Shown here: positions 3,884-47,254 of the stretch, piece by piece
Layout of the letters: each line of letters opens with the position of its first letter
Position numbering within the stretch: the first letter of the stretch is position 1
Source of the DNA: a virus
Lineage: Duplodnaviria; Heunggongvirae; Uroviricota; Caudoviricetes; Crassvirales
DNA: 64,000 nt
Virus record (IMG/VR): IMGVR_UViG_3300037280_000040
Coordinates: 20,379-84,378 of that record
Reading direction: 5' to 3' (one strand)
Program-made: the position numbers and the translations under genes
Notes under the pieces: generated by a model
Seen by the model: the letters and a program-made list of their open reading frames with translations, nothing else
What the model was told of the DNA's origin: nothing
The model's database searches: none

Positions 3884-4129
3884 TTAATGAATCCAATATT
3901 TAGCTGTTTCAGGTACTGCAACTAATTTAACTGATTTACAGAATATAGCAGCTGCTTCATCCATAGCTTTTTTTAAATTTGCTGCTACTTCATCTACTAT
4001 TTCATCAGGAGATTCAACTAAGTACTCATCATGTACATCATTAGGAATCCAAACTGTAAACAATAGATTATTTCTAAGTAAATAATTAAAGAATCTAATA
4101 CCTGCTATTTTTGTAACTATAGCTGCTGT
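3884..4129 (-). CDS. DNA polymerase I family (PolA), 3' exon. It carries motif C and the C-terminus.
   Basis: Manual translation of the minus strand gives TAAIVTKIAGIRFFNYLLRNNLLFTVWIPNDVHDEYLVESPDEIVDEVAANLKKAMDEAAAIFCKSVKLVAVPETAKYWIH*. VHDE is PolA motif C. It joins in frame to ...NAPVQG of exon 1. Confidence 0.7.
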   Translation of the reverse strand, partial: TAAIVTKIAGIRFFNYLLRNNLLFTVWIPNDVHDEYLVESPDEIVDEVAANLKKAMDEAAAIFCKSVKLVAVPETAKYWIH

Positions 4130-4918
4130 CAGCTTTGTTATCTTATAGGCTCTTTATCCTATAATTCAATACCTTTAACTTTCGGTATTGCTCGGACTAT
4201 ATCTTAAAATATTATTACAAAAATTTATAAGTTCTTGTGTGGTAGCAGAATTTTTCATAGAGTTAGCTTTCTTACTGATAATCATAATGTTATTTTTAGT
4301 GTAACCAATACTATTATCTATCCTATCTAGAGATGGACTATACTCGTAGTTCCCCTTACTGCCTTTAACTAAAGGAACAAGTAATATAGGACAAATATCA
4401 GGAATAATTATATCTTCTACTGTTAAAGTAAATTCCATATTTTTTCTTTCTGCCCTCTTTTTAGCTGCATTTAGCATACCTACTTTATAAGGAATATCCT
4501 TTTTTAAAGAATTTCTCTTTAAAAGATTAGTTCTTTCCTTAAAACTAGTATCATATAACCTTCTAAATTGTCTCATAGACATATCTTCTGGTTTAGATTC
4601 TATACAATCTATGCAAGCCCACTCTCTTTTATACTCTCCCTTATAAGCAATTCTAAAAGAATCTAGGGGAAGTAATCTTCCACATTTTTTACAAATTTTT
4701 GTTTCCATACATATAGTTATTTATTACTTACACAAAGGTAAGTAATAATTTTGATATATGCAAATATTTTACCCCTTTTCTTGGTGTTTTACCTTCCCAT
4801 AGGGAATCCATACACTAGTCTCTACACCTTCTACTTATTACTAAGTAGCTTGGCTCGGTATTCCCATCTCAGGGTTCACCGAATTTAAGGGTTTTAAATA
4901 GGGCACAACTTTATGTCC
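4130..4918 (-). mobile_element. Group I intron interrupting the PolA gene, with an HNH endonuclease ORF in the P8 position
   Basis: On the minus-strand RNA there is an R-like element, GGUGUAGAGACUA (plus 4816-4828), and an S element, AAGAUAUAGUCC (plus 4194-4205). Exon 1 ends in U and the intron ends in G. A homologous core with compensatory stem changes is present in the RNR intron. Confidence 0.7.
4175..4708 (-). CDS. HNH homing endonuclease encoded inside the PolA intron
   Basis: The N-terminal CKKCG...CIDC zinc ribbon and SLDRIDNSIGYTKNNIMIISKKANSMKN resemble the second HNH ORF at 9137-9805. Confidence 0.6.
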   Translation of the reverse strand: METKICKKCGRLLPLDSFRIAYKGEYKREWACIDCIESKPEDMSMRQFRRLYDTSFKERTNLLKRNSLKKDIPYKVGMLNAAKKRAERKNMEFTLTVEDIIIPDICPILLVPLVKGSKGNYEYSPSLDRIDNSIGYTKNNIMIISKKANSMKNSATTQELINFCNNILRYSPSNTES

Positions 4919-6724
4919 ACCCTGTACAGGTGCATTTAAAGCATTTCTCTCATAACCACTTTTAGTCTGAAAGAATTTACTTACATCTAACATCATTTGA
5001 GGTCTATCATCTCTATTACTTCCATTAGCTATCCATTGCTGTTTAACTACTCTATACTCTGACCAAAACTCATAATCCATTGATTTTTCAATCGCTTTTA
5101 ATTCTTTCCAATCATGTATAAACATTTTATGACCAGTTATAGAATTAATAAGAATATAACCTTTATCCCACATATCTTTCTTTACTCTTTTAAAGTAAAC
5201 TTCTATATTAGGTAACCCAGTTAAATAAGATTTTTCAATAGCATTACCTTGTTCTAAAGGTAAAGATAAATTTCTTGCAATAGTTGAACCATTTCCTCCA
5301 TAATGTATTGAAAATTTAGCTTTTTTTGCTAATGTTCTTAAATCAGGTCTTTTAGGTTTCACTTCTTCTTCAGATAAAATATCTAAATCTTTAGGAAAGC
5401 AAATTTTAGCAACAAAACTATGTCCATCTCTTTTTCTAGTATCATTGTAAAATTCAATAAGTTTTTGTTCCTGAGATAACTCAGCAAATATAAAATCTTC
5501 TTGAGCAGTATAATCACAATCAATTAAAGTATAGCCACTTTGAGCTACAAAACTATGTCTTGTCTCATCATTATTAGGTAGATTTTGTAGGTTAAGATGC
5601 TCTATATTATTAGTTTTATCTTTACCACCACAACTTAATCTACCAGTGTCCATCATCTGATTAAAATTAGTATGAATTCTACCACTAATAGGATTTATTT
5701 GGTCTATAACACCTTGTCCATAAGTACTTACTACCTTATCAAAACCTTTATAATCTAAATAAGGTTGGGTAATAGTTGATACATCTTTCTGTAAACTAAT
5801 TACTTTAGCTTCAACAGATTTTTTCATCAATCCAGTTTTCTTATCTTTAGTAAGTAATTTAAATCCTAAAATTTCAAACAACTTAACTACTTGAGGAGAA
5901 CTAGCCCAATTAATATTACATACAGGTTCAGCATTAAAACCTTCAAATAAATCACCTTGTAAATCAGTTTCTGTAAATTTTAATAATCTTGAATCAGTTT
6001 TACTATTATCTACTACCCATTTATTAAGTACTATTCTAGAATCTTCTAATTTCTTAGAATCATTAGCCATTTTAGACTTCCACTTCTCAATATCTAACTT
6101 AATGCCACTATACTCAATATAAGCAAGTACTTTAACAAATTCATTTTCAACTCTAGCAGCTGAATGTAAGTCTTTTTCTGTTAGAGCTAACTCTTGAGCA
6201 TCTTTGATTTGACTAAGATATTTTACATCATTACAACCATATTCTATAACTTCTTCTGTTAAAGCTCTTTTAATATTACCTCTTTCTGATTTATCAAGAT
6301 AAATGTTTAGATAATTACCAGCACAGCCTTGTAAACCCATGCTTCTTTTACCTGGAGGATAACCCATATAGAGTAATTTCTCTACTACAAAAGTATCATA
6401 AACATTCCTTATAACAATTCTTTTATGATACAAGAATTGTAAATCAAATTTAGCATTATGTAATATAAATAGCTTAGAAGAATCTTCTAATAATGGCTTT
6501 AATAATTCAATATTGATAGTATAATCTATAGCAAATTGATTCTCAAAATCTCCCAACTGAAGTAATAATAATGCTTTTGTATAAACATCTAATCCTTCAG
6601 TTTCAGTATCAAGACCTATGATAGGTTTATCAGCAAAATAATCTAAACAAAATTGTAAATTACATACTGATACTCTATCATAGGTATTGAATAGTTGAAC
6701 ATTATTAGTTATAAAATACTTCAT
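4919..6724 (-). CDS. DNA polymerase I family (PolA), 5' exon. It carries the 3'-5' exonuclease domain and polymerase motifs A and B.
   Basis: Exo I is DTETEGLD. Motif A-like is LIDCDYTAQEDFIFAELS. Motif B is RTLAKKAKFSIHYGG. The conserved ERNALNAPVQG lies just before the splice point. The 24 codons that follow it are intron read-through. Confidence 0.75.
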
Positions 6725-6987
6725 TACTTAAATGTAATTATACAACCTGTTCCAGGAATAAAATCAATAAATCTTACAATAAATCCCTCAATATCAGAAC
6801 CTAATCTAATATTGGGACCATCTACTATGTTTACATAAATATGATTAAACTCATCATATTCAGGTATAATCCCTTCACTAGCTTTAACAATATAAGTTTT
6901 AGAGTCAATTCCTTCAGTTACAGAGTTTAATTTCTGTAAATAATTATTAGCTCCATTTTTACAATTTAACTTTATGATTTTGTCCAT
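6724..6987 (-). CDS. Hypothetical protein (87 aa)
   Basis: ORF whose stop abuts the PolA start. Confidence 0.35.
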   Translation of the reverse strand: MDKIIKLNCKNGANNYLQKLNSVTEGIDSKTYIVKASEGIIPEYDEFNHIYVNIVDGPNIRLGSDIEGFIVRFIDFIPGTGCIITFK

Positions 6988-7550
6988 ATTACCATGTTAT
7001 TAAAGTCAAGTTCCCATTGATGAGTAGTAAAGAATTTACTACCTAATACACCATGTAACTGTATATTATTATCATGTAATACTACAGTAAATACATCTGT
7101 CATAGGCATTAATACAAATTCTTCTCTAAATTTATAATTATCATAATCAAAATTTAAAGTACATTTAGTACTTTCTTCTATACCACTACCTGTAGTAACT
7201 TTACTATTAGGTAATTCTTCTAAATTATTAGTAGTTTTAATATTATTAAATATGTCTTTATTAAACATATTAACATCAGCCCCACTATCTAATAAGAAGT
7301 TGTATTCTACACCATATAAAGTTAATCTTATGATAGGTAATTTATGCTTCTCAAAATCCTTTTTAAACTTTAATTTATTATCTTTAAGTCTTAATACTCT
7401 TAGATTAAAAATATACTCTTTTTTAATTACTGCTCTAATATGTTTTACCATATAAAACAATGGAATTCCTAAAATTAAAAGGAATCCTAAAATTACCAAA
7501 ATCATTTCTATCATCTTCTCTTTATTTTTTACCAGTTGAGCCAAATCCAC
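6972..7550 (-). CDS. Membrane-anchored retropepsin-like aspartic protease
   Basis: An N-terminal TM helix, MIEMILVILGFLLILGIPLFYMV, plus the LLDSGADVN motif (hh-D-S/T-G-A). Confidence 0.5.
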   Translation of the reverse strand: MDLAQLVKNKEKMIEMILVILGFLLILGIPLFYMVKHIRAVIKKEYIFNLRVLRLKDNKLKFKKDFEKHKLPIIRLTLYGVEYNFLLDSGADVNMFNKDIFNNIKTTNNLEELPNSKVTTGSGIEESTKCTLNFDYDNYKFREEFVLMPMTDVFTVVLHDNNIQLHGVLGSKFFTTHQWELDFNNMVIWTKS

Positions 7551-8010
7551 CTCTATTAGGATTTTTCAAACTCTCAACTTCTACAAATTTAACTTTGCTT
7601 GTAAATAACCATTTTAATTTTATCCATACTGGAGCTGTCTGAGTAGGTCTTATTCTAAACTGACAAATTCTTTCTCCTTCTTTAATGGTAGTAGCTCTAA
7701 AGGCAGTAGCTAAAAATCCCCACTTATCATCATCTCCACAATAAGTATTATCAATAACTCCTTGAGAGTTATTAGATATAATGCCATATTTATTATAGGT
7801 ACTAGACCTAGGTAATACATTAGCTTCAAAATGCTTAGGTAACTGCATACTTACTCCTAATGGAATAATAGCACTATTGAAGAGGATAGAGTTATCACTG
7901 TTAACTTTAGGACCTTGTAAGGTTACTTCTTTTTCAGCTCTAAGGTCTATCCAATCTCCAAAGGATTCAATTTTACAAATAGGATTACTATATTTAATTT
8001 TAATTTTCAT
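7522..8010 (-). CDS. dut: dUTP pyrophosphatase
   Basis: All five dUTPase motifs are present: GDWIDL, PRSS, GVIDNTYCGDD, ERICQF and RGGFGSTG. Confidence 0.85.
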   Translation of the reverse strand: MKIKIKYSNPICKIESFGDWIDLRAEKEVTLQGPKVNSDNSILFNSAIIPLGVSMQLPKHFEANVLPRSSTYNKYGIISNNSQGVIDNTYCGDDDKWGFLATAFRATTIKEGERICQFRIRPTQTAPVWIKLKWLFTSKVKFVEVESLKNPNRGGFGSTGKK

Positions 8011-8013
8011 GTT

Positions 8014-9153
8014 TTATGTTAATGATTGATGAATAAAGAAACATTTAGAGTAAGTACATTCAGAGCACTTAACACAACCTGCTTCATGAACTAGTGGTTT
8101 ACCACAATCAGGACAAACTTCTCCTTTAACTTCTTCTTTAGGAATATATTTACCTAATACTCTACACATTGCTGAACTAAATGAAGTAATATTATCATTT
8201 ATTTTTCTAGTAGTATCTATAATAAAAGATATTGCAGCCCCATGTCTTAATAACATAGAAGTATAAATAGTACAAGCTTTTTCTTCAATCTTATCATTAG
8301 CTAATTGTAAATTAGGATAAACATAAAATTCAGAATTAAACTGATATTGTCCTTTTTTAACTTTAGTAATAGTACCAATAGTATTCTTAGCTAATTTTTC
8401 TCCTAATGAATCTTTCTTTAATTCATAAGCAAATATCTCAAAAGGTTTGCCATCTAATAATCCTACTATAACTGCATAACTAATACCTTGAGATTTAACT
8501 ACATACATTTCAGCAGGTAATGTTTTAGGTCTTTTGGGAGCAGAATTTTCTTTAATTGTACCTAATTTTTCTTCAGTAGTAATGTTATTTAATATACCAT
8601 CTCTACAACCATCTCTATAAATAGTAATACCTTTAAGATTTTTATTCCAAGCCATCATAAATATCTGAGAAATAGTCTCTTCTTTTACATCCTTAGGTAA
8701 ATTAATAGTAGAACTAATAGAATGAGTAGTATATTTTTGAACTATTGATTGTAATTCAATTCTATCCTCCCAATCAATACTAGCTGAATCAGAGTTGTAC
8801 CAAGGAGATTTTTTAAAATAATCTTCTAACTCAAATGTTTTTATTCCTTCACAACCATCATCATATTTAAGTTGAATCCATTGTTTAAATGGTTCATGTA
8901 AAACATAGAATTTAGTAAATTTCTCTCCAGTAATATCAGTAAAATCAACTCTATCATTCTCAGACATACATTTCTTACTTCTCTCATAATAAGGAGCAAA
9001 TATAGGTTCAATACCTGAAGATACTTGTGCCATAATACTTACAGTACCAGTTGGTGCTACAGTAGAAAAAGAAACATTCCTCCTCCCATACTTTTGCATT
9101 TTCTCATATTGTTGTGGAAAATTTTCTTTTATAAATTTATACCAAGCATTCAT
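8014..9153 (-). CDS. Ribonucleotide reductase large subunit, C-terminal fragment, translated as a separate ORF
   Basis: RRNVSFSTVAPTGTVSIMAQVSSGIEP matches the RNR alpha LRNSLLIAPMPTASTSQI...ESIEP region. It ends in a Cys cluster, CPDCG...CVKCSEC. Confidence 0.7.
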   Translation of the reverse strand: MNAWYKFIKENFPQQYEKMQKYGRRNVSFSTVAPTGTVSIMAQVSSGIEPIFAPYYERSKKCMSENDRVDFTDITGEKFTKFYVLHEPFKQWIQLKYDDGCEGIKTFELEDYFKKSPWYNSDSASIDWEDRIELQSIVQKYTTHSISSTINLPKDVKEETISQIFMMAWNKNLKGITIYRDGCRDGILNNITTEEKLGTIKENSAPKRPKTLPAEMYVVKSQGISYAVIVGLLDGKPFEIFAYELKKDSLGEKLAKNTIGTITKVKKGQYQFNSEFYVYPNLQLANDKIEEKACTIYTSMLLRHGAAISFIIDTTRKINDNITSFSSAMCRVLGKYIPKEEVKGEVCPDCGKPLVHEAGCVKCSECTYSKCFFIHQSLT

Positions 9154-9805
9154 ATTTTTTTCTTTTTTGATTTAATGCAATTTTGGTGCACATATTTATA
9201 AAATGTTCTTGAGTATATACATTTTTCATTATATTAATATCCCTATGTACCCATTGTACATTTCCTTCAATATAACCCTTTGTAGAATCTATTCTATCCA
9301 AAGAAGCATCAAAAGCTCCAAAATCTAGATTACCACTATAGACATTTTTTTTATTAATAAGTACTCCTGGTTCAAATAGTTTTATATCTATACCAGATAA
9401 ATTACATTTTTTATTTTGTTTAATAAATAATTCCCATAAATATTCTATAGATATATTAAATTCATGACCTCTTGACTTGGCTGCATTTTTATAATGCCAA
9501 TATAAAGATCTTGGTAAATCCCCTATTCCTTGATGTTTAGGAGAATATCCAACTGAACATATTCTGCCATTTAATTTATTATTTTTCCATTTTTCTCTAT
9601 TAGAACATTTTCTACATCTCGTAGACTTTTCTGATTTTAAAGTATCTCCTCTAATTAATTTTTCAGCTCCACATTTAATACATTGTACTTTTATAAATCC
9701 TCTATGTATATTATTAGTTTTATTCTTAACATTATATACAGTTGAATCAATTACTTTATAAATACCATATATTTCATCTTCTTTAAAATTATATTGTCTT
9801 GGCAT
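9137..9805 (-). CDS. HNH homing endonuclease inserted between two RNR fragments
   Basis: It has a zinc ribbon, CIKCG...CRKCS, and SLDRIDSTKGYIEGNVQWVHRDINIMKN. Its start overlaps the upstream RNR fragment stop as TAATG. Its end overlaps the downstream fragment start by 17 nt. Confidence 0.6.
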   Translation of the reverse strand: MPRQYNFKEDEIYGIYKVIDSTVYNVKNKTNNIHRGFIKVQCIKCGAEKLIRGDTLKSEKSTRCRKCSNREKWKNNKLNGRICSVGYSPKHQGIGDLPRSLYWHYKNAAKSRGHEFNISIEYLWELFIKQNKKCNLSGIDIKLFEPGVLINKKNVYSGNLDFGAFDASLDRIDSTKGYIEGNVQWVHRDINIMKNVYTQEHFINMCTKIALNQKRKKYECLV

Positions 9806-10677
9806 TATAATACTTTTTCTAATTCTGCATCATAACCATCAAATGTACCTCTTATTATAGCTAAATCAATAGTAGAATCTAATTCTCCCATCATTTTAGT
9901 ATAAAGAATTAAATCAGTATATTCTAAAGACTCTTCACTACCATATCTTATACCTAACATAGCAAATACATCTGCTAATCCAGTAAATCCTACTCCAGCT
10001 CTTCTACCTTTTTTAGCAGTTTCTTGGATTTTAATCCATAAATCTAATTCTAATATATCAGGTTCTTCTGCTCTACTAATATGGTCTATAATTCTATCAA
10101 TTGCTTCAACTTCTAAATCAATTAAATCATCTGCTAATCTCATTGTTTTATAAGCTACTTCATATAACTTATCTGTCTCAAATTGAGCAGAATCTGTATA
10201 AGGATTAGATACAAAACTAGCTAAATTAATATGAATTAATCTACAAGAATCATAAGGTTGCATAAAGATTTCACCACAAGGATTTGTTGTAACTCCTCTG
10301 TATTGAGGATATACTCCATCAGGACTATAATCATGATGATTATCTTCAAACATAATTCCTGGCTCAGCAGTATTCCAAGCACAATGTACTAGAGAATTCC
10401 ATAATTCTTTTGCTTTTACTTTCTTAAACCATAATGGATTTAAACTATTTTGAGCTGAATATAACTCATTATAATTAAAATCTCCTATAATCATATTAGC
10501 TCCTGCATTAATAGGAAACTGTTGTATAAAATCTTTATTTTTATCTACTGATTCCATAAATTCAGTAGTAAGCTTTACTGATATATTAGCACCAGTAATC
10601 TTATCTAAATTCTGTTTAGAAGTAATAAAATCTCCACTATCAGGATGTACTATACTAATAGTTTCCATTAATGCCCC
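9805..10677 (-). CDS. Ribonucleotide reductase large subunit, middle exon with the active site
   Basis: The NPCGEI active-site motif and RRAGVGFTGLADVFAMLGIRYGSEESLEY match RNR alpha. It joins in frame to exon 1 as GGRR|GALMETISIVHPD. Confidence 0.7.
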   Translation of the reverse strand, partial: GALMETISIVHPDSGDFITSKQNLDKITGANISVKLTTEFMESVDKNKDFIQQFPINAGANMIIGDFNYNELYSAQNSLNPLWFKKVKAKELWNSLVHCAWNTAEPGIMFEDNHHDYSPDGVYPQYRGVTTNPCGEIFMQPYDSCRLIHINLASFVSNPYTDSAQFETDKLYEVAYKTMRLADDLIDLEVEAIDRIIDHISRAEEPDILELDLWIKIQETAKKGRRAGVGFTGLADVFAMLGIRYGSEESLEYTDLILYTKMMGELDSTIDLAIIRGTFDGYDAELEKVL

Positions 10678-11657
10678 CTATTTGGACTATATCACACCTT
10701 AATTTAATAATTAAGGCTTGGGTTCTAATTCTGGTTATTAAGGGAAACCAATTTCCCTCCAGTAGTCTCTACACCTTCTATAGAATGGTCTATAGCTCGG
10801 CTCGGTATTGCATTATCACTAATGGTTTCACCGAATTCTCCCAATTCAAGACGCAGGGCATTGAATTTATCAAATTTTCTCTTTAATGGTATAAAATCTC
10901 TATCTTGGTATAACCAATCATAGAATTTTAATACATCTTTTTTATTAGAGAATTCTAATACAAAACAATCAGATTTTGTCTTAGGTTTAATAGAAGTAGA
11001 TATCCCTATTTTATATAGTATTTTTTGAGTAGCTAATAAAAGACCATAAGAAGAAGTAAAAGACACTTTTTGCCATATTCTTCCTCTATCTATTCTTTTG
11101 CCCCAAGTTATACAACCATCAGCATCAAATAAACCTTGTATCATATACTTTTCTAAACTATTTTTTAAAATAGGAAGATTTCTTTCTTTTTTAAGAGTAT
11201 TTCCTAAAAATTTAGATAATCCATTTATCTTTCTAGTAATACTAACATCAGGGAATTTTTTAGTAATTTCATTTCTAGTTAAATCTTCAAATGTATTACA
11301 TCCTAATATATTACCTAAAAAATCAATCAATTCTTTATCCCTATGTTGTAGTACTAATTGTACCATATCATTATTTATATAACTATCAGCAGCTATAAAT
11401 CCAATAAGATAAGCCCATTCTTTTGTTTCTATTTTATCTAAAATTAAAGTTGGATTTTTTTTATGAATCATTAAATTAGTTAATTCATACTTTTTAATCC
11501 AATATCTTAAAGATAAAGGTAATAACCCTAAATCTCTTTCTATTTGTCTTACACTTTTTCCCTCTAATAGGAAATTTGATAATTGTTCTTTTGTAATATT
11601 ACATACTCTATTCATTTTCTGTATATATTTAATTAAAATTTAATTAAGAACTTGTTT
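10678..11657 (-). mobile_element. Group I intron in the RNR gene, carrying a LAGLIDADG endonuclease ORF
   Basis: The R-like element is at plus 10762-10774 and the S-like element, GUGAUAUAGUCC, at plus 10684-10695. The core is homologous to the PolA intron, and the variable hairpin shows compensatory changes (ctatag/ctatag here, ctactta/taagtag there). Exon 1 ends ...cgU and the intron ends ...AAAUAG. Confidence 0.7.
10725..11615 (-). CDS. LAGLIDADG homing endonuclease, double-motif, encoded inside the intron
   Basis: The two motifs are LIGFIAADS and GLFDADGCI. Confidence 0.7.
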   Translation of the reverse strand: MNRVCNITKEQLSNFLLEGKSVRQIERDLGLLPLSLRYWIKKYELTNLMIHKKNPTLILDKIETKEWAYLIGFIAADSYINNDMVQLVLQHRDKELIDFLGNILGCNTFEDLTRNEITKKFPDVSITRKINGLSKFLGNTLKKERNLPILKNSLEKYMIQGLFDADGCITWGKRIDRGRIWQKVSFTSSYGLLLATQKILYKIGISTSIKPKTKSDCFVLEFSNKKDVLKFYDWLYQDRDFIPLKRKFDKFNALRLELGEFGETISDNAIPSRAIDHSIEGVETTGGKLVSLNNQN

Positions 11658-12224
11658 ACGTCTACCTCCCTGAGCCACTTCTCTAGTGATTTCAGAGTCT
11701 ACTTCCATAAAAGAAACAGGTCCTGTAGAAGTCTTTGCAGCATTGTTTACAAAAGCTCCATTAGGTCTAAGTAAAGATAAATCTTTACCTACTCCTCCAC
11801 GTCTCTTCATAAGTTGAGCTTGCTCAGTTCTTTTAAGCATAATGCCACCATAAGAATCACTAGGTTGTCCAATTACAAAACAATTAGATAATGAACCTAT
11901 TTGAGTAGTATTACCTAACATACTCATTACTGAACCACCTGGAATGACATATTTAAAATTCTTAAATAATCTATAAATATCAGAATATATATCAGCAGAA
12001 GTAGCTTTTAATAAATCTACTTGTAGCTTTTTTCCATAATCTGATAAAGAATTAACATCATAAGATTTATCTGATTGTTTATAATTCCATTCAATCCTAG
12101 TAAACTCTTTTGCCATTCTTTTGTGCATATCATCAGGAGTTATTTCTCCTTCAATAGCATACTTACTTTTCCAAGCTTGTGTAGCTAATTCATCTCCATT
12201 AAAATACTTAAGTATTTCTTTCAT
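11658..12224 (-). CDS. Ribonucleotide reductase large subunit, 5' exon. No ATP cone is present.
   Basis: GSLSNCFV is the first catalytic Cys motif and VAQGGRR follows it. The ORF tail KQVLN* is intron read-through. Confidence 0.7.
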
Positions 12225-28813: not shown

Positions 28814-29224
28814 TGGTGGAGCTAGAGGGAGTCGAACCCTCGTGTTATCTTAATACTTACTAATAATCTTATATATGCTTAGTATTTACTGTACTTTTTC
28901 AGCTATTTCTAGTAATAGAGTGAAATATTGAAAACTCTAGGACTGTTTGGGACACAAACAGACACCACCATGCAATGAGATTGCAATACTTAATATTCCT
29001 CAGTAAGGAGGCAATATATCTCAAGACTTTTTAAGAAAGTTTAAACTTTTTACAACTTTATTTGATAAGGTTGTTGTCACCCCAGTTCTCTTACGCTACT
29101 AAAGCAAGCTTTGCAGCAGGAACAAAAACAATAGTTTTGCCTGTTATTCTTCTTTGAGTATTTAAAGGACTCCTCCATGCATAAATTACTACTTTTCTTG
29201 AGATAGTCTAAACCAACTAGCCCC
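28814..29224 (-). ncRNA. ssrA: tmRNA-like RNA (ssrA-like), about 411 nt
   Basis: The 5' end, GGGGCUAGUUGGUUUAGACUA, parallels E. coli GGGGCUGAUUCUGGAUUCGAC. The 3' end is GAGGGUUCGACUCCCUCUAGCUCCACCA, with a T-arm, an acceptor stem with a G3:U wobble, and an encoded CCA. A tag-like ORF reads AAUAACAGGCAAAACUAUUG...GCUUUAGUAGCGUAA, giving GKTIVFVPAAKLALVA* from a GGC resume codon or AKLLFLFLLQSLL* from GCA. Confidence 0.55.
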
Positions 29225-38585: not shown

Positions 38586-38625
38586 AATGTTCTTAAGTAC
38601 TAAGATTAATAATTTATTTAATTGT

Positions 38626-38698
38626 GATTCAGAAGGGATTCAAACCCTTGACCCCTACCTTAGAAGGGTAGTGCTCTATTCAGCTGAGCTACTGAACC
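38626..38698 (-). tRNA. tRNA-Arg (anticodon UCU)
   Basis: Manual fold: acceptor GGUUCAG/CUGAAUC, D stem GCUC/GAGC, anticodon stem CUACC/GGUAG with loop CUUCUAA, T arm AAGGG-UUUGAAU-CCCUU. Confidence 0.7.
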
Positions 38699-38758
38699 GT
38701 TTAAAATAAGTCTTAACTATTAGCTAAGACTTATATTATGGTATTTAATTTATTCTTT

Positions 38759-39229
38759 TTAAGCTTCTGCTTTTTCTACTTCTTGAGCAAGAATGGGAGA
38801 ATCATCTTTTTCTCTCTCATTAATTTCCCTCATACTATCTTCAATATCACAACTACCTGCATTTGGGCAATTGTCACAATCATGAGAATGAGTTCTACTT
38901 AATAAGTTTGCTTGGTCAATTAAATCTTTATTCATTATATCCTCAGGAGTAATCTTAATTTCTTCCCTTTGTTCAGGATGTTCAAGATTATAAGCCTTTA
39001 ATTCTTCAGATATTCTAGCCAAAGCTGAGACAATAGAATCAGATTCTATTTTATCTAAACCTTTATCAGGAAGTAATAAACATAATGCAAGTAATCCTGC
39101 AAGATATTTATCTTTATCTTCTTCAGTAATACCTTCTTTAAGATATTCAGTAGAATACTTAGAGAATAATGTAATCAGGAAATTAAAGCTACAAATTTTA
39201 GCTAATAACATTAATGCAATTTTTAACAT
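38759..39229 (-). CDS. Hypothetical protein with an N-terminal hydrophobic segment and a CxxC-type cluster, HSHDCDNCPNAGSCD
   Basis: ORF. Confidence 0.35.
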   Translation of the reverse strand: MLKIALMLLAKICSFNFLITLFSKYSTEYLKEGITEEDKDKYLAGLLALCLLLPDKGLDKIESDSIVSALARISEELKAYNLEHPEQREEIKITPEDIMNKDLIDQANLLSRTHSHDCDNCPNAGSCDIEDSMREINEREKDDSPILAQEVEKAEA

Positions 39230-39253
39230 AATGAATAATTTTGAGTGTTTTGT

Positions 39254-39448
39254 TTATAAATGTTTAATACTAATATTTAATAAAATAGGAATATAAACTC
39301 CTGTTTGAATAAAAGGAATTATAGTTACTTTACCTTGTTTATAAAGTAATAGTAACATATCTATTTCCTCACTTGTTAGTGTGTCCATATAATTCACAAT
39401 TATGAGGTTCAACATATAAATCCTTGTTATTGGGGTCAGTATCTTCAA
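39254..39448 (-). CDS. Hypothetical small protein. It overlaps the next ORF in another frame, so it is uncertain.
   Basis: ORF. Confidence 0.2.
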   Translation of the reverse strand: MKILTPITRIYMLNLIIVNYMDTLTSEEIDMLLLLYKQGKVTIIPFIQTGVYIPILLNISIKHL

Positions 39449-39575
39449 TATAAATTCTTACTCCTGATAAAGGTATTACTACTACTCTATCAACAGTAAG
39501 AATTTGTGTTATGACTCCTGTACTAACAATAACTTGGTTACCTTTTTCTAATAAATGAGCTTGTTTAATGGTCAT
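39369..39575 (-). CDS. Hypothetical small beta-rich protein
   Basis: KGNQVIVSTGVITQILTVDRVVVIPLSGVRIYIED looks like real protein sequence. Confidence 0.3.
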   Translation of the reverse strand: MTIKQAHLLEKGNQVIVSTGVITQILTVDRVVVIPLSGVRIYIEDTDPNNKDLYVEPHNCELYGHTNK

Positions 39576-39868
39576 CTTAATAGGGCTATTTTATAATCAA
39601 TTTGAGCATGAATAGAATCACAATCATAGTTTAATGGAACTGAATCATTAAACTTCTTATAAGCTTCAGTTTTACTTGTAGCTTTAATAATGGCTTGATT
39701 ACAATCACCTAAATGATAAGTACTATCATCATGGTCTTTATAATATACTTCATAATCCACTATAAATAATGAATCATGAGTATGAGCAGGAACAGGCAAG
39801 AATACAGCAATAATAATACTAATTATTATTATGATAGAAACAGTAATAAAAAATGTTTTTCTTTGCAT
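39572..39868 (-). CDS. Membrane-anchored small protein
   Basis: N-terminal TM segment, FFITVSIIIIISIIIAVFL. Confidence 0.35.
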   Translation of the reverse strand: MQRKTFFITVSIIIIISIIIAVFLPVPAHTHDSLFIVDYEVYYKDHDDSTYHLGDCNQAIIKATSKTEAYKKFNDSVPLNYDCDSIHAQIDYKIALLR

Positions 39869-39888
39869 TTTAATAGATTTAATAATGA

Positions 39889-40218
39889 CTATTGTTTTGG
39901 GTTTAATAAATACCCTAGAGTATTTTCGTCTGCTACATGAGTATTAATTATATTATTTACCTCAGAGTATATCCAATTCTCAAAATGAGATTTCTTATAT
40001 TCTGATATTTTCTTTAATATACTTAATATATCATACAATTCTTTCTCAGCTTGTTTGAGGTCAAAGGATTTACTACTAGTCATATCAAATCCTGCATTCT
40101 GTAATAATACACTAATAGTAGCATAATTATCAGATTTCCAGTGATTTGAAATGTCTTGTACAATAGCTTGAAAAGCTCTTATTTCCTTTTTGATTAAAAT
40201 TAAAGTATTTACTTTCAT
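39889..40218 (-). CDS. Hypothetical protein
   Basis: ORF. Confidence 0.35.
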   Translation of the reverse strand: MKVNTLILIKKEIRAFQAIVQDISNHWKSDNYATISVLLQNAGFDMTSSKSFDLKQAEKELYDILSILKKISEYKKSHFENWIYSEVNNIINTHVADENTLGYLLNPKQ

Positions 40219-41437
40219 CTTGATTAATAGTTTTTTAATGGTTTAATTCTCAACTATTAATATAGATTAGTTGAGATAGTTTAATAATAATGTTTCATTT
40301 TTCTTGAATTATAGTGAATAATTAGTAAAAAAGAATTAGACAGGTAAATAAAAAATAAACTATAACTAGTCCAATAGAGTGTGTTAATACATCTTTATTT
40401 AGACTTAGTTATAGAATTATACTATCAAATAACTGATGTTTATAATTTTTAATTGGTTTGTTCTTGCTTATCAGGTTCATAATAAACCTTAGCAGGATGA
40501 GTTAATTGGATATCTAATACTTTAGTAAATAAATAGAAAAATCCTATTATAACTACTAAAGCAATGATTAATCCAGTTACTTTTACATGGATAACTTTGA
40601 TTGTTTTCATTAGGACTATTGATTATTGATTGTTGATTAAAAATAAAATAACTCTCTTACTTGACCTGACTATCCTAAGTTATCAAAGATTAACTAGTAT
40701 TCCTAATAGGGCTTTCTGTTGTCTTTCAGAGAGTTAAAAAATAATCTTAAACTATGGGTTGTATGCATTCTTTATCTCGTAGGCTTTACTTGCATAATAT
40801 CAACTCTGACGTTTCTCAGCTTTTAGAGTCCATAATTTAAGATTAAGGGATTGTAATATAAATAAACAAGGCTCTTTACAATCTCAACAATAGTTAAGTT
40901 CTGCAAGTCTTATACAATTATTCATTGCCTTTAAATAGGATTAAACTTATTATATTCAGGGCTGTAATGTGACACCTGCTTGTTTAAAATTTACTACACT
41001 TATTACCACTATTATTTTCAAATGGCTGTATAGTTGATTTATATCTAGAGAGTATTCTAGTTATATTTCATTGGCTATTTAATATAATAAAGAGCTATTT
41101 AAACCCAAACAATACTCGTTTGTAGCTGAATACTCTCTAATATATTTTTTACTATTACTTAATCACTACCATCTAATCCTGGGTAGTCATAATCTTGTGA
41201 ACAATCATCTAAATCACCATCAAGGTCATCTAAATCTCTTTTTCTATAAGCCATAATGGTTAAATTAAGATATTATTGTATCACAATTTTGTTGATTGGC
41301 AAATTTAATTGCTCTAGCTAATGACCTACTAGCACCTTTATTTTTATTAGGTGCTAGTACATCTTCAAATTTATCAGTTTTATTGTTTTTACGTTTGGAC
41401 TGTTTAACTGTACTTACTCTATGAATGGTCATAATAT

Positions 41438-41749
41438 TTACTTTATTAGTTCATTAACATTATAATCAGTAAAGAAGTGTTTCATGATTGTACCTCTACC
41501 TGAGTAGGCAAAGATACTATCATTACTTTCTACAATAATAGTGTAAGACCTTGTATCTATATTACATATTTGGTCTATTATTCTCACAGAATCTTTAAAT
41601 GAATTAAGATTCTCAATAAATTGAGTATCACTAATTAGTTCTAACTCAGGACTTGTGTTAATACTAGTATCTCTTTTGTAATTCTCAGGAGTACATGAAG
41701 TTATTACTATACTTAGTATAATAATAATAAATAAGATAGTTCTTTTCAT
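41438..41749 (-). CDS. Small lipoprotein
   Basis: Signal plus lipobox ILSIVITSCTP. Confidence 0.4.
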   Translation of the reverse strand: MKRTILFIIIILSIVITSCTPENYKRDTSINTSPELELISDTQFIENLNSFKDSVRIIDQICNIDTRSYTIIVESNDSIFAYSGRGTIMKHFFTDYNVNELIK

Positions 41750-42151
41750 TGTGTTTGTATGTGTAATTGTTGATTAATTAAAGAATTTAACTTCTCCAGT
41801 AGGATATGCAATGCATATTCTATTGCTATTAATACGTGTTTTCATTGTGTTTAATGTGTTTATTAATGTATTATTGATTATTGTATGTTAAGTTATAACA
41901 GTAAATACTGTTAAGTAATAATAAATGTATGTATTTGTTCTATATGTTGCTATCAGGCAATAAATAGTGGGTTGTTTATAGACATCAGATTATCAACACA
42001 TTAGCTACATAAATCTAAAGTAATACTGTAGGTATGACCAATGTTAGAGATTTATTATTAAGGGTAATGTATAACTTTAACAATGTGAGTTCTATCAATG
42101 TAACAATGTGAAATGTATTAATGTATCAATGATTTAATGTTACTCTTAACA

Positions 42152-42182
42152 ATAAAAAAAAGAACAGGAGATTGCTCTCCTG
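42152..42182 (-). terminator. Intrinsic terminator downstream of gene 42202-42507
   Basis: GC-rich hairpin caggaga-ttgc-tctcctg. On the minus strand it is followed by UCUUUUUUUU. Confidence 0.6.
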
Positions 42183-42201
42183 CTCTTAGTTTAGAATTTG
42201 C

Positions 42202-42507
42202 TTAGAATTCTGCCAATACAGCAGCATTGGTGTTTTCACCTAATTGGTGTAACATAAAGAATACACCACTTGGATTCCTTTCAGTTGGGTCACCTGTAAC
42301 TTCAGATACAACTGGTTTGTCCATTGCAGCTAATGTACCAACTTTTTTGATACTGACTGAACCAACTACTTGGTTAAGGTCATTTAGCATACTTAAAGAA
42401 CCTGCATTAAGTTCTTTCACTTTGATAACTTTTGTTCCAATAGAAGCTTTGAAGTCTTCTACACTCATAGTCTTATTAAAGACTAGAGGATTTGCATGTT
42501 CTGTCAT
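42202..42507 (-). CDS. Hypothetical protein (101 aa). It is the first gene of the minus-strand block and has its own terminator.
   Basis: ORF adjacent to the divergent control region and followed by a strong terminator. Confidence 0.45.
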   Translation of the reverse strand: MTEHANPLVFNKTMSVEDFKASIGTKVIKVKELNAGSLSMLNDLNQVVGSVSIKKVGTLAAMDKPVVSEVTGDPTERNPSGVFFMLHQLGENTNAAVLAEF

Positions 42508-42866
42508 AATGAATGTTGTTTAAAGAATGTAAATAATAAATGTTGATTAAATGAAATTTGCCAAATTTGAATGTCCCAGAGGGGGATATACCCAAGTGGC
42601 TAAGAGGTGGGGAGAGTCTGGATAGTTTATATATCACTTGTATAAAAATTTATAATTTTCAAAATTTTAGAGTATACATCACTTGCATAAACTTTTTTTA
42701 TTTCAAAAAAAAAATTAGAATTTTTAAATTTTGAATATTCAGACTAGTTAGTATAATAGGTACATAGAAAGAAGAAGTAAAAAAGGAGTGTACTCAAAGT
42801 CTTGAAATATAGATAGATATATTTATTAAAACTTATTAACTTTTATTGTGTTGTGTATGTCAATTA

Positions 42867-42885
42867 TTTTACTTATCTTTGTTGC
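42867..42885 (+). promoter_or_regulatory. Bacteroidetes-type promoter -7 box (TAtcTTTG at 42874-42881) inside the conserved TTTTACTTATCTTTGT motif
   Basis: The same extended motif recurs before six further plus-strand transcription units. Confidence 0.5.
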
Positions 42886-43586
42886 ATCTGATTAGAGTAT
42901 TACTTTCTAATATCATCCAATCTTATATAAATAAGAAGAAATGTAAGTATTGGATTAGAAGTTGGGTTGTAAGTATACAAATATAGTATATTGAGATGTC
43001 CCCAATACAGATAAAAATGACTTATATATAAGTAAATTTCAGACACCCAAGTAATTGAGAAAAGGTAAAGGTAAAGTCTGTTGAGGGATAAAAGTAGAAA
43101 TACTTTAAGACGTGGTTTATGAAGTTATAAGTTTATAAGGACTCTCAGCAATGAGAAGTTTTTTAGTCATTAACAATTTGGCTAGGACTTCTTATATCAA
43201 TAATTAAATAAATAGAAATATTAAAAACAAATAAGGAATAGAACTTAATAGGGGATTGGGGATTGTTGTATGGCAAAGAAAACTCCATTTAAAGCCTTAT
43301 TAAAGTTTATAAATTTGTAAATAAATAAATATTAATAGTATGAAATTAAAAGTAATGAACTTTAAGATTAAACTAGATATGTTTATGGTTAAATATAATA
43401 ATAATATTATTACAAGTATTATTGCTATGTTGCCATTACTATATCTATTATTTTTACTGTAGGAGAAGGAGATAAATACATAAGAATCAAGGTCTAGGAA
43501 GATAGAAAAAATTAAATATAGTTTATTTTTATCTTCTTAATCAAGTTATATGCTTAGAAATTTTATAAAAGATTTGGTAATCTCAA

Positions 43587-43608
43587 TTATTTTACATATC
43601 TTTGTATA
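43587..43608 (+). promoter_or_regulatory. Promoter motif TTTTACATATCTTTGT, with the -7 box at 43597-43604
   Basis: It shares 22 nt of context, caattattttacNtatctttgt, with the copy at 42861. Confidence 0.5.
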
Positions 43609-43794
43609 GACTTTAAGAGATGTCTATATAATTATTAATTTTTAAACTCATATCCTACTATGAAAACAACTAAGAAATCACCTAAAAAGGGTGGTGGCAA
43701 ATGCTAAAGATTTAGTAATTAAGGGGATAAGTAGTTATTCCCTTTTTTATTATTAATTTATAAAGTTTTAACTATATTTATTTGGTATATTAAG

Positions 43795-43816
43795 TAATTA
43801 TACTTATCTTTGTGTA
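43795..43816 (+). promoter_or_regulatory. Promoter motif TACTTATCTTTGTG, with the -7 box at 43805-43812, upstream of gene 43836
   Basis: Motif match. Confidence 0.5.
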
Positions 43817-43835
43817 TAATTTTAAAGGTAAGATA

Positions 43836-44117
43836 ATGAATGAAGTAGAAAGATTTATATCAGTAGTAAGAGATTCTTTTATAGGGTCACAACAAGTATA
43901 TACAGAAGGTAGTTGTTATCATTTTTATTTAATACTTAAAGAAGTATTTCCTACAGCTGAACCTTATTTTGATAAGGACCATGTTATTACTAAAATAGAT
44001 GATAAATTTTATGATATTACTGGAGAAGTAAGAGGTGATTTAACTCTCTATAAGTATGAAAGATTACCTTCTTATGGATTAAAAAGTCCTTATAATATTT
44101 ATAAGAATAATAACTAA
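43836..44117 (+). CDS. Hypothetical protein. The start was moved to the ATG at 43836 behind the promoter and an aggtaag spacer.
   Basis: The ORF listed from 43812 overlaps the promoter box. The internal Met, MNEVERF, is the likely start. Confidence 0.4.
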   Translation: MNEVERFISVVRDSFIGSQQVYTEGSCYHFYLILKEVFPTAEPYFDKDHVITKIDDKFYDITGEVRGDLTLYKYERLPSYGLKSPYNIYKNNN

Positions 44118-44123
44118 TAAAAT

Positions 44124-44194
44124 AGTTTCCTAGTGTAATGGTAGCACAAGAGTCTTTGGTCCTCTTAGTTAAAGTTCAAATCTTTAGGAGACTA
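44124..44194 (+). tRNA. tRNA-Gln (anticodon UUG)
   Basis: Manual fold: acceptor AGUUUCC/GGAGACU, D stem GUG/CAC, anticodon loop CUUUGGU, T arm UAAAG-UUCAAAU-CUUUA. Confidence 0.55.
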
Positions 44195-44203
44195 CAATAA
44201 TAT

Positions 44204-44275
44204 GCCTTTATAGTGTAATGAATAGCACACGATTCTTCTAAGATTATAGTATAGGTTTGAATCCTATTAGGGGTA
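44204..44275 (+). tRNA. tRNA-like, probably tRNA-Arg (UCU), with a weak anticodon stem
   Basis: Acceptor GCCUUUA/UAGGGGU is wobble-rich. The T arm is AUAGG-UUUGAAU-CCUAU. The anticodon loop is CUUCUAA, but only 4 of 5 stem pairs form. Confidence 0.4.
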
Positions 44276-44290
44276 CAATAATTAATAAAT

Positions 44291-44557
44291 ATGATACAAA
44301 GAGTTCCTGTATTGAGAGAATGTTCTTATAAAGAATATAATGATAACATAGATAAACATCCTGATGAATATCTTAGATTATTTGTAGTTGATAGTAATAC
44401 TGAAAGTACTGAGGATATTACAAAAGAGGTTGATGATAATATTGATGCAATAGGTAATACTGATAAGAATAAGTTTTACAAAGTATTAGGATTAGTTAGT
44501 TCTCAAGAGTTAGAAAAAGATATACAACAAACACAACAAAGTAGTTTGTTGAATTAA
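44291..44557 (+). CDS. Hypothetical acidic protein
   Basis: ORF. Confidence 0.35.
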   Translation: MIQRVPVLRECSYKEYNDNIDKHPDEYLRLFVVDSNTESTEDITKEVDDNIDAIGNTDKNKFYKVLGLVSSQELEKDIQQTQQSSLLN

Positions 44558-44718
44558 ATCATAAATGTTTTTAATAAAGTTGATTTAGCTATACTTAGTC
44601 TGTGAAGATAGAGATAGCACAAAAATATAGATATAGTTCAGTTGCTAGAATGCTTGGTTTGGGACCAAGAGGTCAAGAGTTGGAGTCTCTTTATCTATAC
44701 AATTTATTTTAGAATTAA

Positions 44719-44932
44719 AATGGAAGAAGAAAAGAAAACATTAGAACCTTATCAACTAAGAGTTATTGATGAGTTTAAAGATATTGATTTTAAAGTAAGA
44801 AAGATAGAGAAATTTATATTAACTGATGTATATAAAAATTTATCTAAATCAGAACAAAGTATGATAGACTTACAGGTTATGTATATGACTGGTTATTATA
44901 AAGTTTTAATGGAAAGAATAAATAGATTTTAA
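44719..44932 (+). CDS. Hypothetical small protein. The start was moved to the internal MEEEKKT.
   Basis: ORF. The upstream part of the listed ORF is unlikely to be coding. Confidence 0.35.
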
Positions 44933-44935
44933 TAA

Positions 44936-45009
44936 GGGGTCTTAGCTCAATTGGCTAGAGCGATTGCTTTGCAAGCAATAGGTAGTGGGTTCAATCCCCA
45001 CAGATTCCA
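44936..45009 (+). tRNA. tRNA-Ala (anticodon UGC)
   Basis: Acceptor GGGGUCU/AGAUUCC with G3:U70. D stem GCUC/GAGC. Anticodon stem AUUGC/GCAAU with loop UUUGCAA. T arm GUGGG-UUCAAUC-CCCAC. Confidence 0.75.
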
Positions 45010-45014
45010 CATAT

Positions 45015-45088
45015 GTTCTAATAGCTCAATTGGTTAGAGCTTTTGACTGTTAATCAAAGGGTTGTAGGTTCAAGTCCTACTTAGAACG
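45015..45088 (+). tRNA. tRNA-Asn (anticodon GUU)
   Basis: Acceptor GUUCUAA/UUAGAAC. Anticodon stem UUUGA/UCAAA with loop CUGUUAA. T arm GUAGG-UUCAAGU-CCUAC. Confidence 0.75.
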
Positions 45089-45111
45089 CAGTATTAATTT
45101 AATTAAAAACA

Positions 45112-45414
45112 ATGGCACAAATTGAAGTAATGTTAGAGATTATAGATGATGTAATTCCTTTATATCCTGATTTAGTATCAAAAGATTATAAAGAAACTAT
45201 CATATATGATTATAAAAATTTATTAGATACTAAAGAATCTCTATATAAATATAGAGAAATAGTAAGAGAATTAGAAGTAGCTTTAAAAGAAAGAGAATAT
45301 AAATTTAATAAACAATCTCAATTTTTTAATATTGTTTATAAGACTGAAATTAAACAAGGAGTTGATAAACCTGAATATGCTGATACTATGCATGTAAAGG
45401 GAAAAGTATATTAA
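45112..45414 (+). CDS. Hypothetical protein
   Basis: ORF. Confidence 0.4.
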   Translation: MAQIEVMLEIIDDVIPLYPDLVSKDYKETIIYDYKNLLDTKESLYKYREIVRELEVALKEREYKFNKQSQFFNIVYKTEIKQGVDKPEYADTMHVKGKVY

Positions 45415-45415
45415 T

Positions 45416-45643
45416 ATGACTTGGGAAGAAGCTTACTTAGAGATGGAGAAAGGTAATATTATTACCACTCCTAATAGTCCTAATTATTGTTTACTATATG
45501 CTCCTAATCATATATTAGTATTTTGTGAACCTGATAGATTATATCATATTAGTAGTAATAAAAGAATTAAAGAAGTTACTGATTATATAGTTGATAATAC
45601 TAAGAGAGATATTATTAATAATTTAGTAATAAAACTAAAATAG
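45416..45643 (+). CDS. Hypothetical small protein
   Basis: ORF 2 nt after the previous stop. Confidence 0.35.
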   Translation: MTWEEAYLEMEKGNIITTPNSPNYCLLYAPNHILVFCEPDRLYHISSNKRIKEVTDYIVDNTKRDIINNLVIKLK

Positions 45644-45677
45644 TTTATTTTTATCTTCCTACTCAATTTTAAAGCGT

Positions 45678-45938
45678 ATGAATAGATACTTTATAGTTAA
45701 TCCAAATCTTTATATATCTAAAGATAAATACATAGTAAGACTAACTGAATACAATATTGATACTCATATCTTTAAAGGAACTAAGATTAGTTGGATTACA
45801 AATGATGAGGATGGTAAAATAGAAGATATTAGAATAGAAGATATTGAATTGGATGATAATAAATTATCAATATTTAAAGAAATAAATAAAAGAATTTTTT
45901 ATAAGATATTATTAGTACTATTAAAGAATTCTTATTAA
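45678..45938 (+). CDS. Hypothetical small protein
   Basis: ORF. Confidence 0.35.
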   Translation: MNRYFIVNPNLYISKDKYIVRLTEYNIDTHIFKGTKISWITNDEDGKIEDIRIEDIELDDNKLSIFKEINKRIFYKILLVLLKNSY

Positions 45939-45956
45939 CCTTAAAAACTTAATAAA

Positions 45957-46397
45957 ATGGACAATTTTGATTTAGATTTAAGTCTAAGACCTAAGGGTGG
46001 TAGTGGTAATACTAGTGGTACTAGTACTTTTAAAGATTTTATATGTAAACTTGAAAGTTATAAAACTAAATTTAAGAATTTACATTGGGGAGCTATGAAT
46101 GATACTTTACATTTAAGAGTAGACCAATTCTTAGATGAGTTAACTGACTTCCAAGATGAATTATCTGAGACAGGGCAAGGTATTATAGGATTCCAATTTG
46201 GACCTAATGATATAGTTACTACTCACTTAAATTATACTGACCCAATAGTAGCTTTAACTACTCTTAAAGATAAAACATTAGCATTTCATAAAAGTATTAA
46301 TTCTAATCCTGAATTAATTGGTTTAGTAAATTCTGTAGAAGGATTTATGACTATAGTAGGAAAATTCTTATATTTATTTAGAATAGCTGCTAAGTAA
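45957..46397 (+). CDS. Hypothetical protein (146 aa)
   Basis: ORF. Confidence 0.4.
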   Translation: MDNFDLDLSLRPKGGSGNTSGTSTFKDFICKLESYKTKFKNLHWGAMNDTLHLRVDQFLDELTDFQDELSETGQGIIGFQFGPNDIVTTHLNYTDPIVALTTLKDKTLAFHKSINSNPELIGLVNSVEGFMTIVGKFLYLFRIAAK

Positions 46398-46406
46398 TTA
46401 GTCTAA

Positions 46407-46479
46407 GGACCAGTAGCTCAGTTGGTAGAGCACCTGACTCATAATCAGTAAGTCCCAAGTTCAATCCTTGGATGGTCCA
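46407..46479 (+). tRNA. tRNA with a CAU anticodon, Met or Ile2-lysidine type
   Basis: Acceptor GGACCAG/AUGGUCC with a G7·A66 mismatch. D stem GCUC/GAGC. Anticodon loop CUCAUAA. T arm CCAAG-UUCAAUC-CUUGG. Confidence 0.55.
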
Positions 46480-46480
46480 C

Positions 46481-46553
46481 TGTGTGGAAAGCTCTTATGG
46501 TGAGAGTGCCAAATTGTGGATTTGGAGGGAGGGTTCGAGTCCCTACTACACCC
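46481..46553 (+). tRNA. tRNA-like, probably tRNA-His (GUG). The acceptor/D-stem junction is irregular.
   Basis: Clean anticodon arm CCAAA-UUGUGGA-UUUGG. T loop UUCGAGU. Discriminator C, as in tRNA-His. Three A residues separate the acceptor and D stems. Confidence 0.4.
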
Positions 46554-46558
46554 TTAAT

Positions 46559-46631
46559 GGAAATATGGCAGACATGATGTATGCACTAGTTTGAAGCACT
46601 AGCTAAGGGAGTTTGAGTCTCTCTGTTTCCA
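46559..46631 (+). tRNA. tRNA-Phe (anticodon GAA)
   Basis: Acceptor GGAAAUA/UGUUUCC. Anticodon stem CUAGU/ACUAG with loop UUGAAGC. T arm GGGAG-UUUGAGU-CUCUC. Confidence 0.55.
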
Positions 46632-46692
46632 CAATATTAGTTAATACTTAAAACTTTAACAATAATAATTAGGTCATGTAGTTTATTTTACT

Positions 46693-46700
46693 TACCTTTG
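46693..46700 (+). promoter_or_regulatory. Promoter -7 box TAccTTTG inside TTTTACTTACCTTTGT, upstream of gene 46724
   Basis: Motif family match. Confidence 0.45.
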
Positions 46701-46723
46701 TATCAACAAATAAAAAATAAAGT

Positions 46724-47171: not shown

Positions 47172-47254
47172 CAATTATTTAGTTTCTAACAAAGTGGATG
47201 GAAGTTAGAATTAAGTGGAGACATGTAATATTCCAACTAAATAATTTTTAAAAT

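Follow-up and report, generated by a model that had tools for sequence, protein, structure and literature searches.

The stretch of DNA analysed here, referred to as the window, comprises 64,000 nucleotides (positions 20,379 to 84,378) of the IMG/VR virus record IMGVR_UViG_3300037280_000040, which is assigned to the Crassvirales, and carries in its replication module a gene for a membrane-anchored, retropepsin-like aspartic protease. Coordinates are given in the numbering of the window. The maximal open reading frame (ORF) in the ORF listing of the window extends over 6972..7550 (-) and encodes 192 amino acids from a GTG codon, with a 29-nucleotide overlap between this GTG start and the upstream dUTPase gene. 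The original prediction, which was made from the sequence without database searches, had placed the gene at 6972-7550; the ORF is real, but 7550 is the GTG that limits the maximal ORF, and the probable start is the ATG at 7514. Since the N-terminus of all close homologues lies directly at the hydrophobic helix, and since this ATG is located 7 nucleotides past the dUTPase stop with the purine-rich sequence AGAGAAG in front of it, the actual product is most likely the protein of 180 amino acids encoded by 6972..7514 (-).

Both elements on which the original prediction was built, an N-terminal transmembrane helix and, after it, the motif LLDSGADVN, are present in the ORF at 6972..7550 (-). The N-terminal transmembrane anchor, IEMILVILGFLLILGIPLFYMV, is a hydrophobic stretch of 22 residues at 7446..7511 (-), corresponding to residues 2-23 of the 180-amino-acid protein and 14-35 of the 192-amino-acid ORF. 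It is followed by a basic juxtamembrane linker, KHIRAVIKKEY...KKDFEKHK (7341..7445 (-)), which is rich in Lys and Arg and was modelled with low confidence, and the end of which forms the N-terminal beta-strand and a short helix of the catalytic domain in the AlphaFold2 model. The active-site loop FLLDSGADVN (7269..7298 (-)) was aligned with FLLDTGAD of the feline immunodeficiency virus (FIV) protease. In the 192-amino-acid ORF, LLDSGADVN occupies residues 86-94 (7269..7295) and LLDSGA residues 86-91, and the catalytic Asp is residue 88, which is Asp76 in the numbering of the 180-amino-acid protein (7287..7289). The predicted flap hairpin region, VTTGSGIEES (7170..7199 (-)), was modelled as a beta-hairpin and aligned with the FIV flap IGIGGGKRGT. 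The second retropepsin hallmark, the hydrophobic-hydrophobic-Gly (psi-loop) motif, is contained together with the next helix in LHGVLGSKFF (7029..7058 (-)), with HGVLG at residues 166-170 of the 192-amino-acid ORF. The C-terminal beta-strand NMVIWTKS (6975..6998 (-)) forms a model strand at the end of the chain, in the position of the retropepsin dimer-interface strand.

The six-residue DSGA-type motif was found once in the 21,205 amino acids of the window ORFs, where 0.12 matches were expected, and taken alone it is weak evidence for a protease. Family comparisons were decisive in placing it, and the profile and fold evidence described here and below puts the DSGA motif in a homologous context. 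The Pfam model Asp_protease_2 (PF13650) was matched by all six members of the first alignment (best E=6.1e-8); two of four close relatives carried a precomputed PF13650 assignment, and homologues so assigned were 47-59% identical. A profile built from 21 family sequences matched the retropepsin structures of FIV and equine infectious anaemia virus (EIAV) at E=3e-7 to 1e-6, with FLLD[ST]GAD placed on the retropepsin catalytic loop and the flap region also aligned; with the single window sequence, the FIV protease was returned by phmmer at E=0.04. In two sets of homologues, the motif hh-D-[ST]-G-[ASC] (h, hydrophobic) was kept in 120/121 and 147/149 members. HG[IV]LG occurred in 111 of 121 homologues, and H155, G156, L158 and G159 of the psi-loop were invariant in alignment A2. 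The NCBIfam models TIGR02281 and TIGR03698 were not matched by the window protein, and the homologues scored 13-24 bits against cut-offs of 57-58. PHROGs contained no family matching the window protein or any of the 21 family members.

An AlphaFold2 monomer model of the window protease was obtained with a predicted local distance difference test (pLDDT) score of 83. The model is a single-lobe beta-barrel with a flap hairpin and contains a helix at residues 2-34, a segment with pLDDT below 50 at residues 32-45, a beta-hairpin formed by E102-109 and E112-125 that represents the flap, and a strand, E176-179, at the extreme C-terminus; as a monomer prediction, it carries terminal strands of the dimer-interface kind. 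When the model was compared with the PDB using Foldseek, the top 50 matches were all retropepsin-like, and it was superposed on the EIAV protease over 103 of 104 residues, although the identity to lentiviral and other retropepsin structures was only 14-20%. At the level of profile and fold, the window protein is thus homologous to retropepsins. The original prediction was to be abandoned if profile searches gave no protease match and the DSGA lay in a non-homologous context; instead, the family profile matches retropepsins, and a retropepsin-like, membrane-anchored aspartic protease in the replication module is supported by sequence, profile, fold and gene context. The annotation of the window gene as a divergent, crAss-type, membrane-anchored aspartic protease is secure. 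In more specific terms, the product is likely to be a 180-amino-acid, single-pass membrane protein with a retropepsin-like protease domain, a divergent member of the "aspartyl protease" family of crAss-like phages, for which we infer activity, dimer formation and topology.

A hydrophobic N-terminal segment was present in 120/121 and 136/149 homologues of the two sets. The anchor is 19-24 residues long and begins within a few residues of the N-terminus, and the mean number of Lys and Arg residues was 0.1-0.2 before it and 4.2-4.3 in the 15 residues after it, an excess that holds in 118/120 and 136/136 homologues. Because of this charge pattern and the positive-inside rule, the anchor is predicted to lie with its N-terminus outside and its C-terminus inside, so that the catalytic domain would be cytoplasmic. 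Independent support is provided by anchor-less homologues of about 139 amino acids, which have no signal peptide and are encoded in prophage-like regions of Paludibacter and Bacteroidales assemblies, with an AAA_24 ATPase, DUF3871 and a Cro/C1-type regulator among the neighbouring genes. Two adjacent, overlapping anchor-less retropepsin-like genes, encoding 140 and 162 amino acids, were observed in prophage-like regions of four such Paludibacter or Bacteroidales loci (L089, 4962..5869; L100, L097 and L096), an arrangement that suggests a possible heterodimeric aspartic protease, by analogy with the two lobes of pepsin. A further homologue (L098, 4851..5459), located in a prophage-like region on a 233-kb contig of a Bacteroidia metagenome-assembled genome, is a membrane-anchored protein of 202 amino acids with a poly-Lys tail, and adjoins a Lar-like zinc-finger protein (DUF3268) and a reverse transcriptase.

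Public phage genomes searched with tblastn returned 51 records, all of them crAss-like phages (Crassvirales), with E values down to 6e-12; every record that was inspected or has a named genus is from the Steigviridae. Most of the matched coding sequences are labelled "aspartyl protease" or "retropepsin-like protein", the former name being carried by gp66 of crAss001 and by dozens of other records. A profile search of 5.8 billion proteins yielded more than 2175 members, all of 160-190 amino acids and many on contigs of 95-103 kb, and the "aspartyl protease" proteins of PhiCrAssBcn were returned at about 1e-63. Among representatives at 50% identity, an exhaustive search gave at least 4330 clusters at E<=1e-3, 1195 at <=1e-10 and 274 at <=1e-30. 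The window protein has the make-up of the crAss001 gp66 type, namely a membrane helix and one catalytic domain within 160-190 amino acids. The family has been named in public records since crAss001 in 2018, and the window gene is a divergent new member of it. The protease gene was described in the original prediction as unusual for a phage gene cluster, and this holds insofar as the family is missing from PHROGs; in crAss-like phages, however, it is conserved, syntenic and already annotated as "aspartyl protease" (crAss001 gp66). The absence of a PHROGs family together with the large Crassvirales family means that the gene is rare among classical phages yet standard in the crAss-like lineage. 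In the open-access literature no paper on the function of the crAss-like protease was found, although it may be discussed elsewhere, and the word "protease" has no occurrence in the Crassvirales review or the crAss001 structural atlas. A cellular origin was considered and rejected, the matches in bacterial assemblies being phage contigs binned into metagenome-assembled genomes, prophage-like regions, or unrelated two-lobe lipoprotein proteases. The window itself has a very low G+C content (27.7%). It probably belongs to a genus, or a taxon of higher rank, within the Crassvirales that is still undescribed, judging from its family-A DNA polymerase (PolA), which is only about 45% identical to that of the nearest named crAss-like phages (Steigviridae).

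The gene context was compared across 82 related loci (2 from GenBank and 80 from IMG/VR). The dUTPase gene was located directly upstream of the protease in about 77 of the 82, PolA directly downstream in 79, and a family-B polymerase (PolB) in two of the remaining three, so that the order dUTPase, protease, DNA polymerase was found in about 95% of the loci; the junctions of the protease with its neighbours often overlap or measure merely 3-6 nucleotides. The window follows the same order, with the dUTPase at 7522..8010 (-) (Pfam PF00692, E=9e-9), the protease, and the N-terminal 639 residues of PolA at 4841..6724 (-) (44-45% identity to crAss-like PolA by tblastn; gene interrupted). This fits the position of the gp66 type, since in crAss001 the protease gp66 lies between dUTPase gp68 and DNA polymerase gp64. 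The replication and nucleotide-metabolism genes of crAss001 are middle genes, transcribed 10-30 min after infection (PMC8375218). In two crAss-like IMG/VR contigs (L060, 3908..7652, and L074, 3944..6312), the protease is followed by the family-B polymerase and not by PolA, and in L060 the polymerase is itself split by a GIY-YIG-like ORF; in both, the polymerase has been swapped in place and the protease retained. A specific link between the protease and PolA was rejected on these grounds: the protease goes with the locus rather than with a particular polymerase family, because its position is kept where PolB replaces PolA.

Between the protease and the polymerase, the window contains an ORF of 87 amino acids (6724..6987 (-)), which overlaps the protease stop by 16 nucleotides, abuts the polymerase start, and is conserved in about 30 of the 82 loci, the window included. 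It is translationally coupled to both genes. When examined as a possible partner or substrate of the protease, it gave no Pfam match and no fold match in the PDB (best E=0.28). Its AlphaFold2 model is all-beta, with one of five models confident; assuming that the window ORF is homologous to the proteins that occupy this slot in crAss001 (gp65) and Kehishuvirus, the label "muconolactone isomerase" given to them finds no support in this model and looks unfounded.

Several other features of the region were recorded. The PolA gene (3887..6724 (-)) is interrupted: in cr85_1 numbering, residues 1-639 are encoded by 6724..4937 and residues 674-770 by 4204..3887, and an HNH-type endonuclease ORF (4175..4708) is located within the gap of about 730 nucleotides. 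The ribonucleotide reductase gene (8014..12224 (-)) is in three pieces (12212..11646, 10677..9814 and 9150..8038), which match residues 4-181, 178-481 and 488-858 of the Kehishuvirus enzyme and are separated by two inserted ORFs. One of these (10725..11615) encodes 296 amino acids; the other (9137..9805; 222 amino acids) is Cys-rich, and its terminal motif is similar to the one in the HNH-type ORF located within PolA. At the gathering threshold, Rfam gave no group I or group II intron RNA that would account for the split genes beside the protease, and PolA may be rejoined by way of an intron or an intein, or work as a split gene. Eleven tRNA genes (Arg x2, Gln, Pro, Ala, Asn, Met x2, His, Phe and Leu) were found in the window at 38624..47412, ten of them clustered at 44.1-47.4 kb among short ORFs. 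A transfer-messenger RNA called by ARAGORN at 28814..29224 (-) is probably a false positive, since it was not confirmed by Rfam.

A working model for the protease can be outlined as follows. The short, uncharged N-terminus would lie outside the cell, whereas the strongly basic linker and the catalytic domain would sit on the cytoplasmic side, tethered close to the membrane. As expected from retropepsin biology, two copies would pair through their terminal strands, each contributing one Asp to the active endopeptidase, and the Ser or Thr of D-[ST]-G would form the "fireman's grip". The membrane anchor may raise the local concentration and thereby favour dimerisation at the cytoplasmic face. The protease would be made together with the replication (middle) genes and would introduce limited cuts in a membrane-near protein of the host or the phage. 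Taken further, the enzyme may serve phage takeover at the cytoplasmic face of the membrane, where, early in replication, it would cut a membrane-associated target at a specific site. The target might be a factor of host defence or cell division, or the product of a neighbouring phage replication gene, and the productive replication of crAss-like phages in Bacteroidota would depend on the cut. This takeover proposal is tentative and rather unlikely in our estimation. The points that weigh against the working model itself include the score of the single window sequence against Asp_protease_2 (E=0.003, 18.7 bits, gathering cut-off 24.3), the identity of only 25-30% to the annotated phage proteins, and the topology, which, like dimerisation and proteolysis, is predicted and has the positive-inside rule as its sole basis. 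No candidate substrate emerged from the analysis. Aspartic proteases usually favour an acidic pH, which is atypical of the cytoplasm, and the catalytic domain of Caulobacter PerP, a characterised bacterial relative with membrane segments, lies outside the cytoplasm, this enzyme being periplasmic. A location outside the cytoplasm is also predicted for the catalytic domain of APRc, a second characterised relative of this type, which has an optimum at pH 6 (PMC4140852).

The examples of APRc and PerP agree better with a reversed topology, in which the hydrophobic segment would be a signal-anchor and the protease would act in the periplasm on envelope proteins, such as the phage receptor (for superinfection exclusion) or cell-wall and outer-membrane factors; the idea in the original prediction that membrane proteins might be processed would agree with this as well. 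This arrangement is nevertheless distinctly unlikely, because the homologues have almost no positive charge before the helix and about four Lys or Arg residues in the 15 after it, whereas a signal peptide or N-in anchor would show the reverse, because a hydrophobic stretch of 19-24 residues exceeds the core of a signal peptide, and because the anchor-less homologues lack a signal peptide. In nearly all loci, with PolA or PolB, the gene is tightly coupled to that of the DNA polymerase, its stop codon overlapping or adjoining the next start. This coupling, together with the lack of a candidate substrate, would be compatible with a non-catalytic membrane tether or adaptor that has retained the retropepsin fold and, for example, holds the replication machinery at the membrane. 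However, there is almost no variation in the catalytic triplet, the psi-loop or the glycine region of the flap among proteins that are only 25-30% identical, a pattern expected of an active enzyme and not of a scaffold, and we consider such a tether very unlikely.

The best sequence matches in the PDB were lentiviral proteases, as would be the case for a protease domesticated from a retroelement or retrovirus, a possibility raised in the original prediction. This origin found no support and is highly improbable: the identity to those proteases is only 14-20%; the genes around the protease are those for dUTPase, ribonucleotide reductase and DNA polymerase, with neither gag nor a reverse transcriptase or integrase gene next to it; its closest relatives, which run to thousands, are without exception small phage or prophage genes that stand alone; and on family members the bacterial and phage clan AA model (Asp_protease_2) outscores the retroviral RVP model (PF00077). 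That the DSGA occurs by coincidence in a small membrane protein of unrelated ancestry might be argued from the shortness of the motif by itself and from the single-sequence Pfam and PDB matches, which remained below threshold, but it is scarcely credible and is refuted by the retropepsin matches of the family profile, the Foldseek result and the EIAV superposition.

Should the protease prove to be a takeover enzyme at the cytoplasmic face of the membrane, a retropepsin-type protease would for the first time have a functional role assigned to it in a bacteriophage. The crAss-like phages are the most abundant human gut viruses, most of their genes have no tested function, and the protease family is large, strongly conserved in its catalytic residues and locked beside the DNA polymerase gene. 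The substrate question concerns the whole family and is not peculiar to the window, for which the annotation is ordinary in its lineage, and the cultured relative crAss001 (gp66) offers a direct route to it.

When compared with the retropepsins of MEROPS family A2 (those of FIV, EIAV and human immunodeficiency virus type 1), the window protein has in common the D-[TS]-G-A loop, the flap, the hydrophobic-hydrophobic-Gly motif and the C-terminal end strand, and presumably also the need to dimerise. It differs in being encoded by a stand-alone gene with a membrane anchor rather than as part of a Gag-Pol polyprotein, and its model shows additional helices downstream of the active-site loop and ahead of the psi-loop, at an identity of 14-20%. 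The gag-pol context that accompanies proteases of retroviruses and long terminal repeat retroelements (RVP) is likewise missing at the window gene, which stands alone between dUTPase and DNA polymerase. With respect to Ddi1/DDI2, the window protein is a membrane-anchored protein of 180 amino acids in which no ubiquitin-like, UBA or helical domain was detected with Pfam. The TIGR02281 and TIGR03698 families also consist of small bacterial proteins with a clan AA domain, and TIGR02281 members usually have an N-terminal membrane helix.

Parallels may also be drawn in working mode. In Bacillus, pro-sigma-E is cleaved in the cytoplasm by SpoIIGA, a membrane-anchored aspartic protease with several membrane helices, which becomes active in response to a signal from the far side of the membrane. 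If the predicted topology of the phage protein is right, the two would work in a similar manner, with a retropepsin-like domain at the cytoplasmic face making one specific cut. The SpoIIGA family was absent among the Pfam matches of the window protein and the family members. APRc (RC1339) of Rickettsia is a membrane-embedded, dimeric, autoprocessing retropepsin-like enzyme of the outer membrane fraction, for which three membrane helices and an outward-facing domain are predicted (PMC4140852). The phage protein, by contrast, contains a single helix, and its catalytic domain is predicted to be cytoplasmic. SpoIIGA and APRc come closest as working analogies; neither is a match at the family level.

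The nearest counterparts are the aspartyl proteases of other crAss-like phages. In comparison with the crAss001 gp66 type, the window protein is only 25-30% identical, and the clade to which it belongs has a basic linker that is longer by about 13 residues, DSGA in place of DTG[AS], and a less canonical flap, with TGSG for GI[ED]G. Proteins of both kinds, including crAss001 gp66 (AXQ62709.1), QOR59499.1 of cr85_1 and WEU69789.1 of Kehishuvirus tikkala, have in common a membrane helix at the N-terminus, a catalytic domain of about 120 amino acids, the motifs LLD[TS]G[AS] and HG[IV]LG, and a slot in the genome consisting of dUTPase, protease, an optional small ORF and DNA polymerase.
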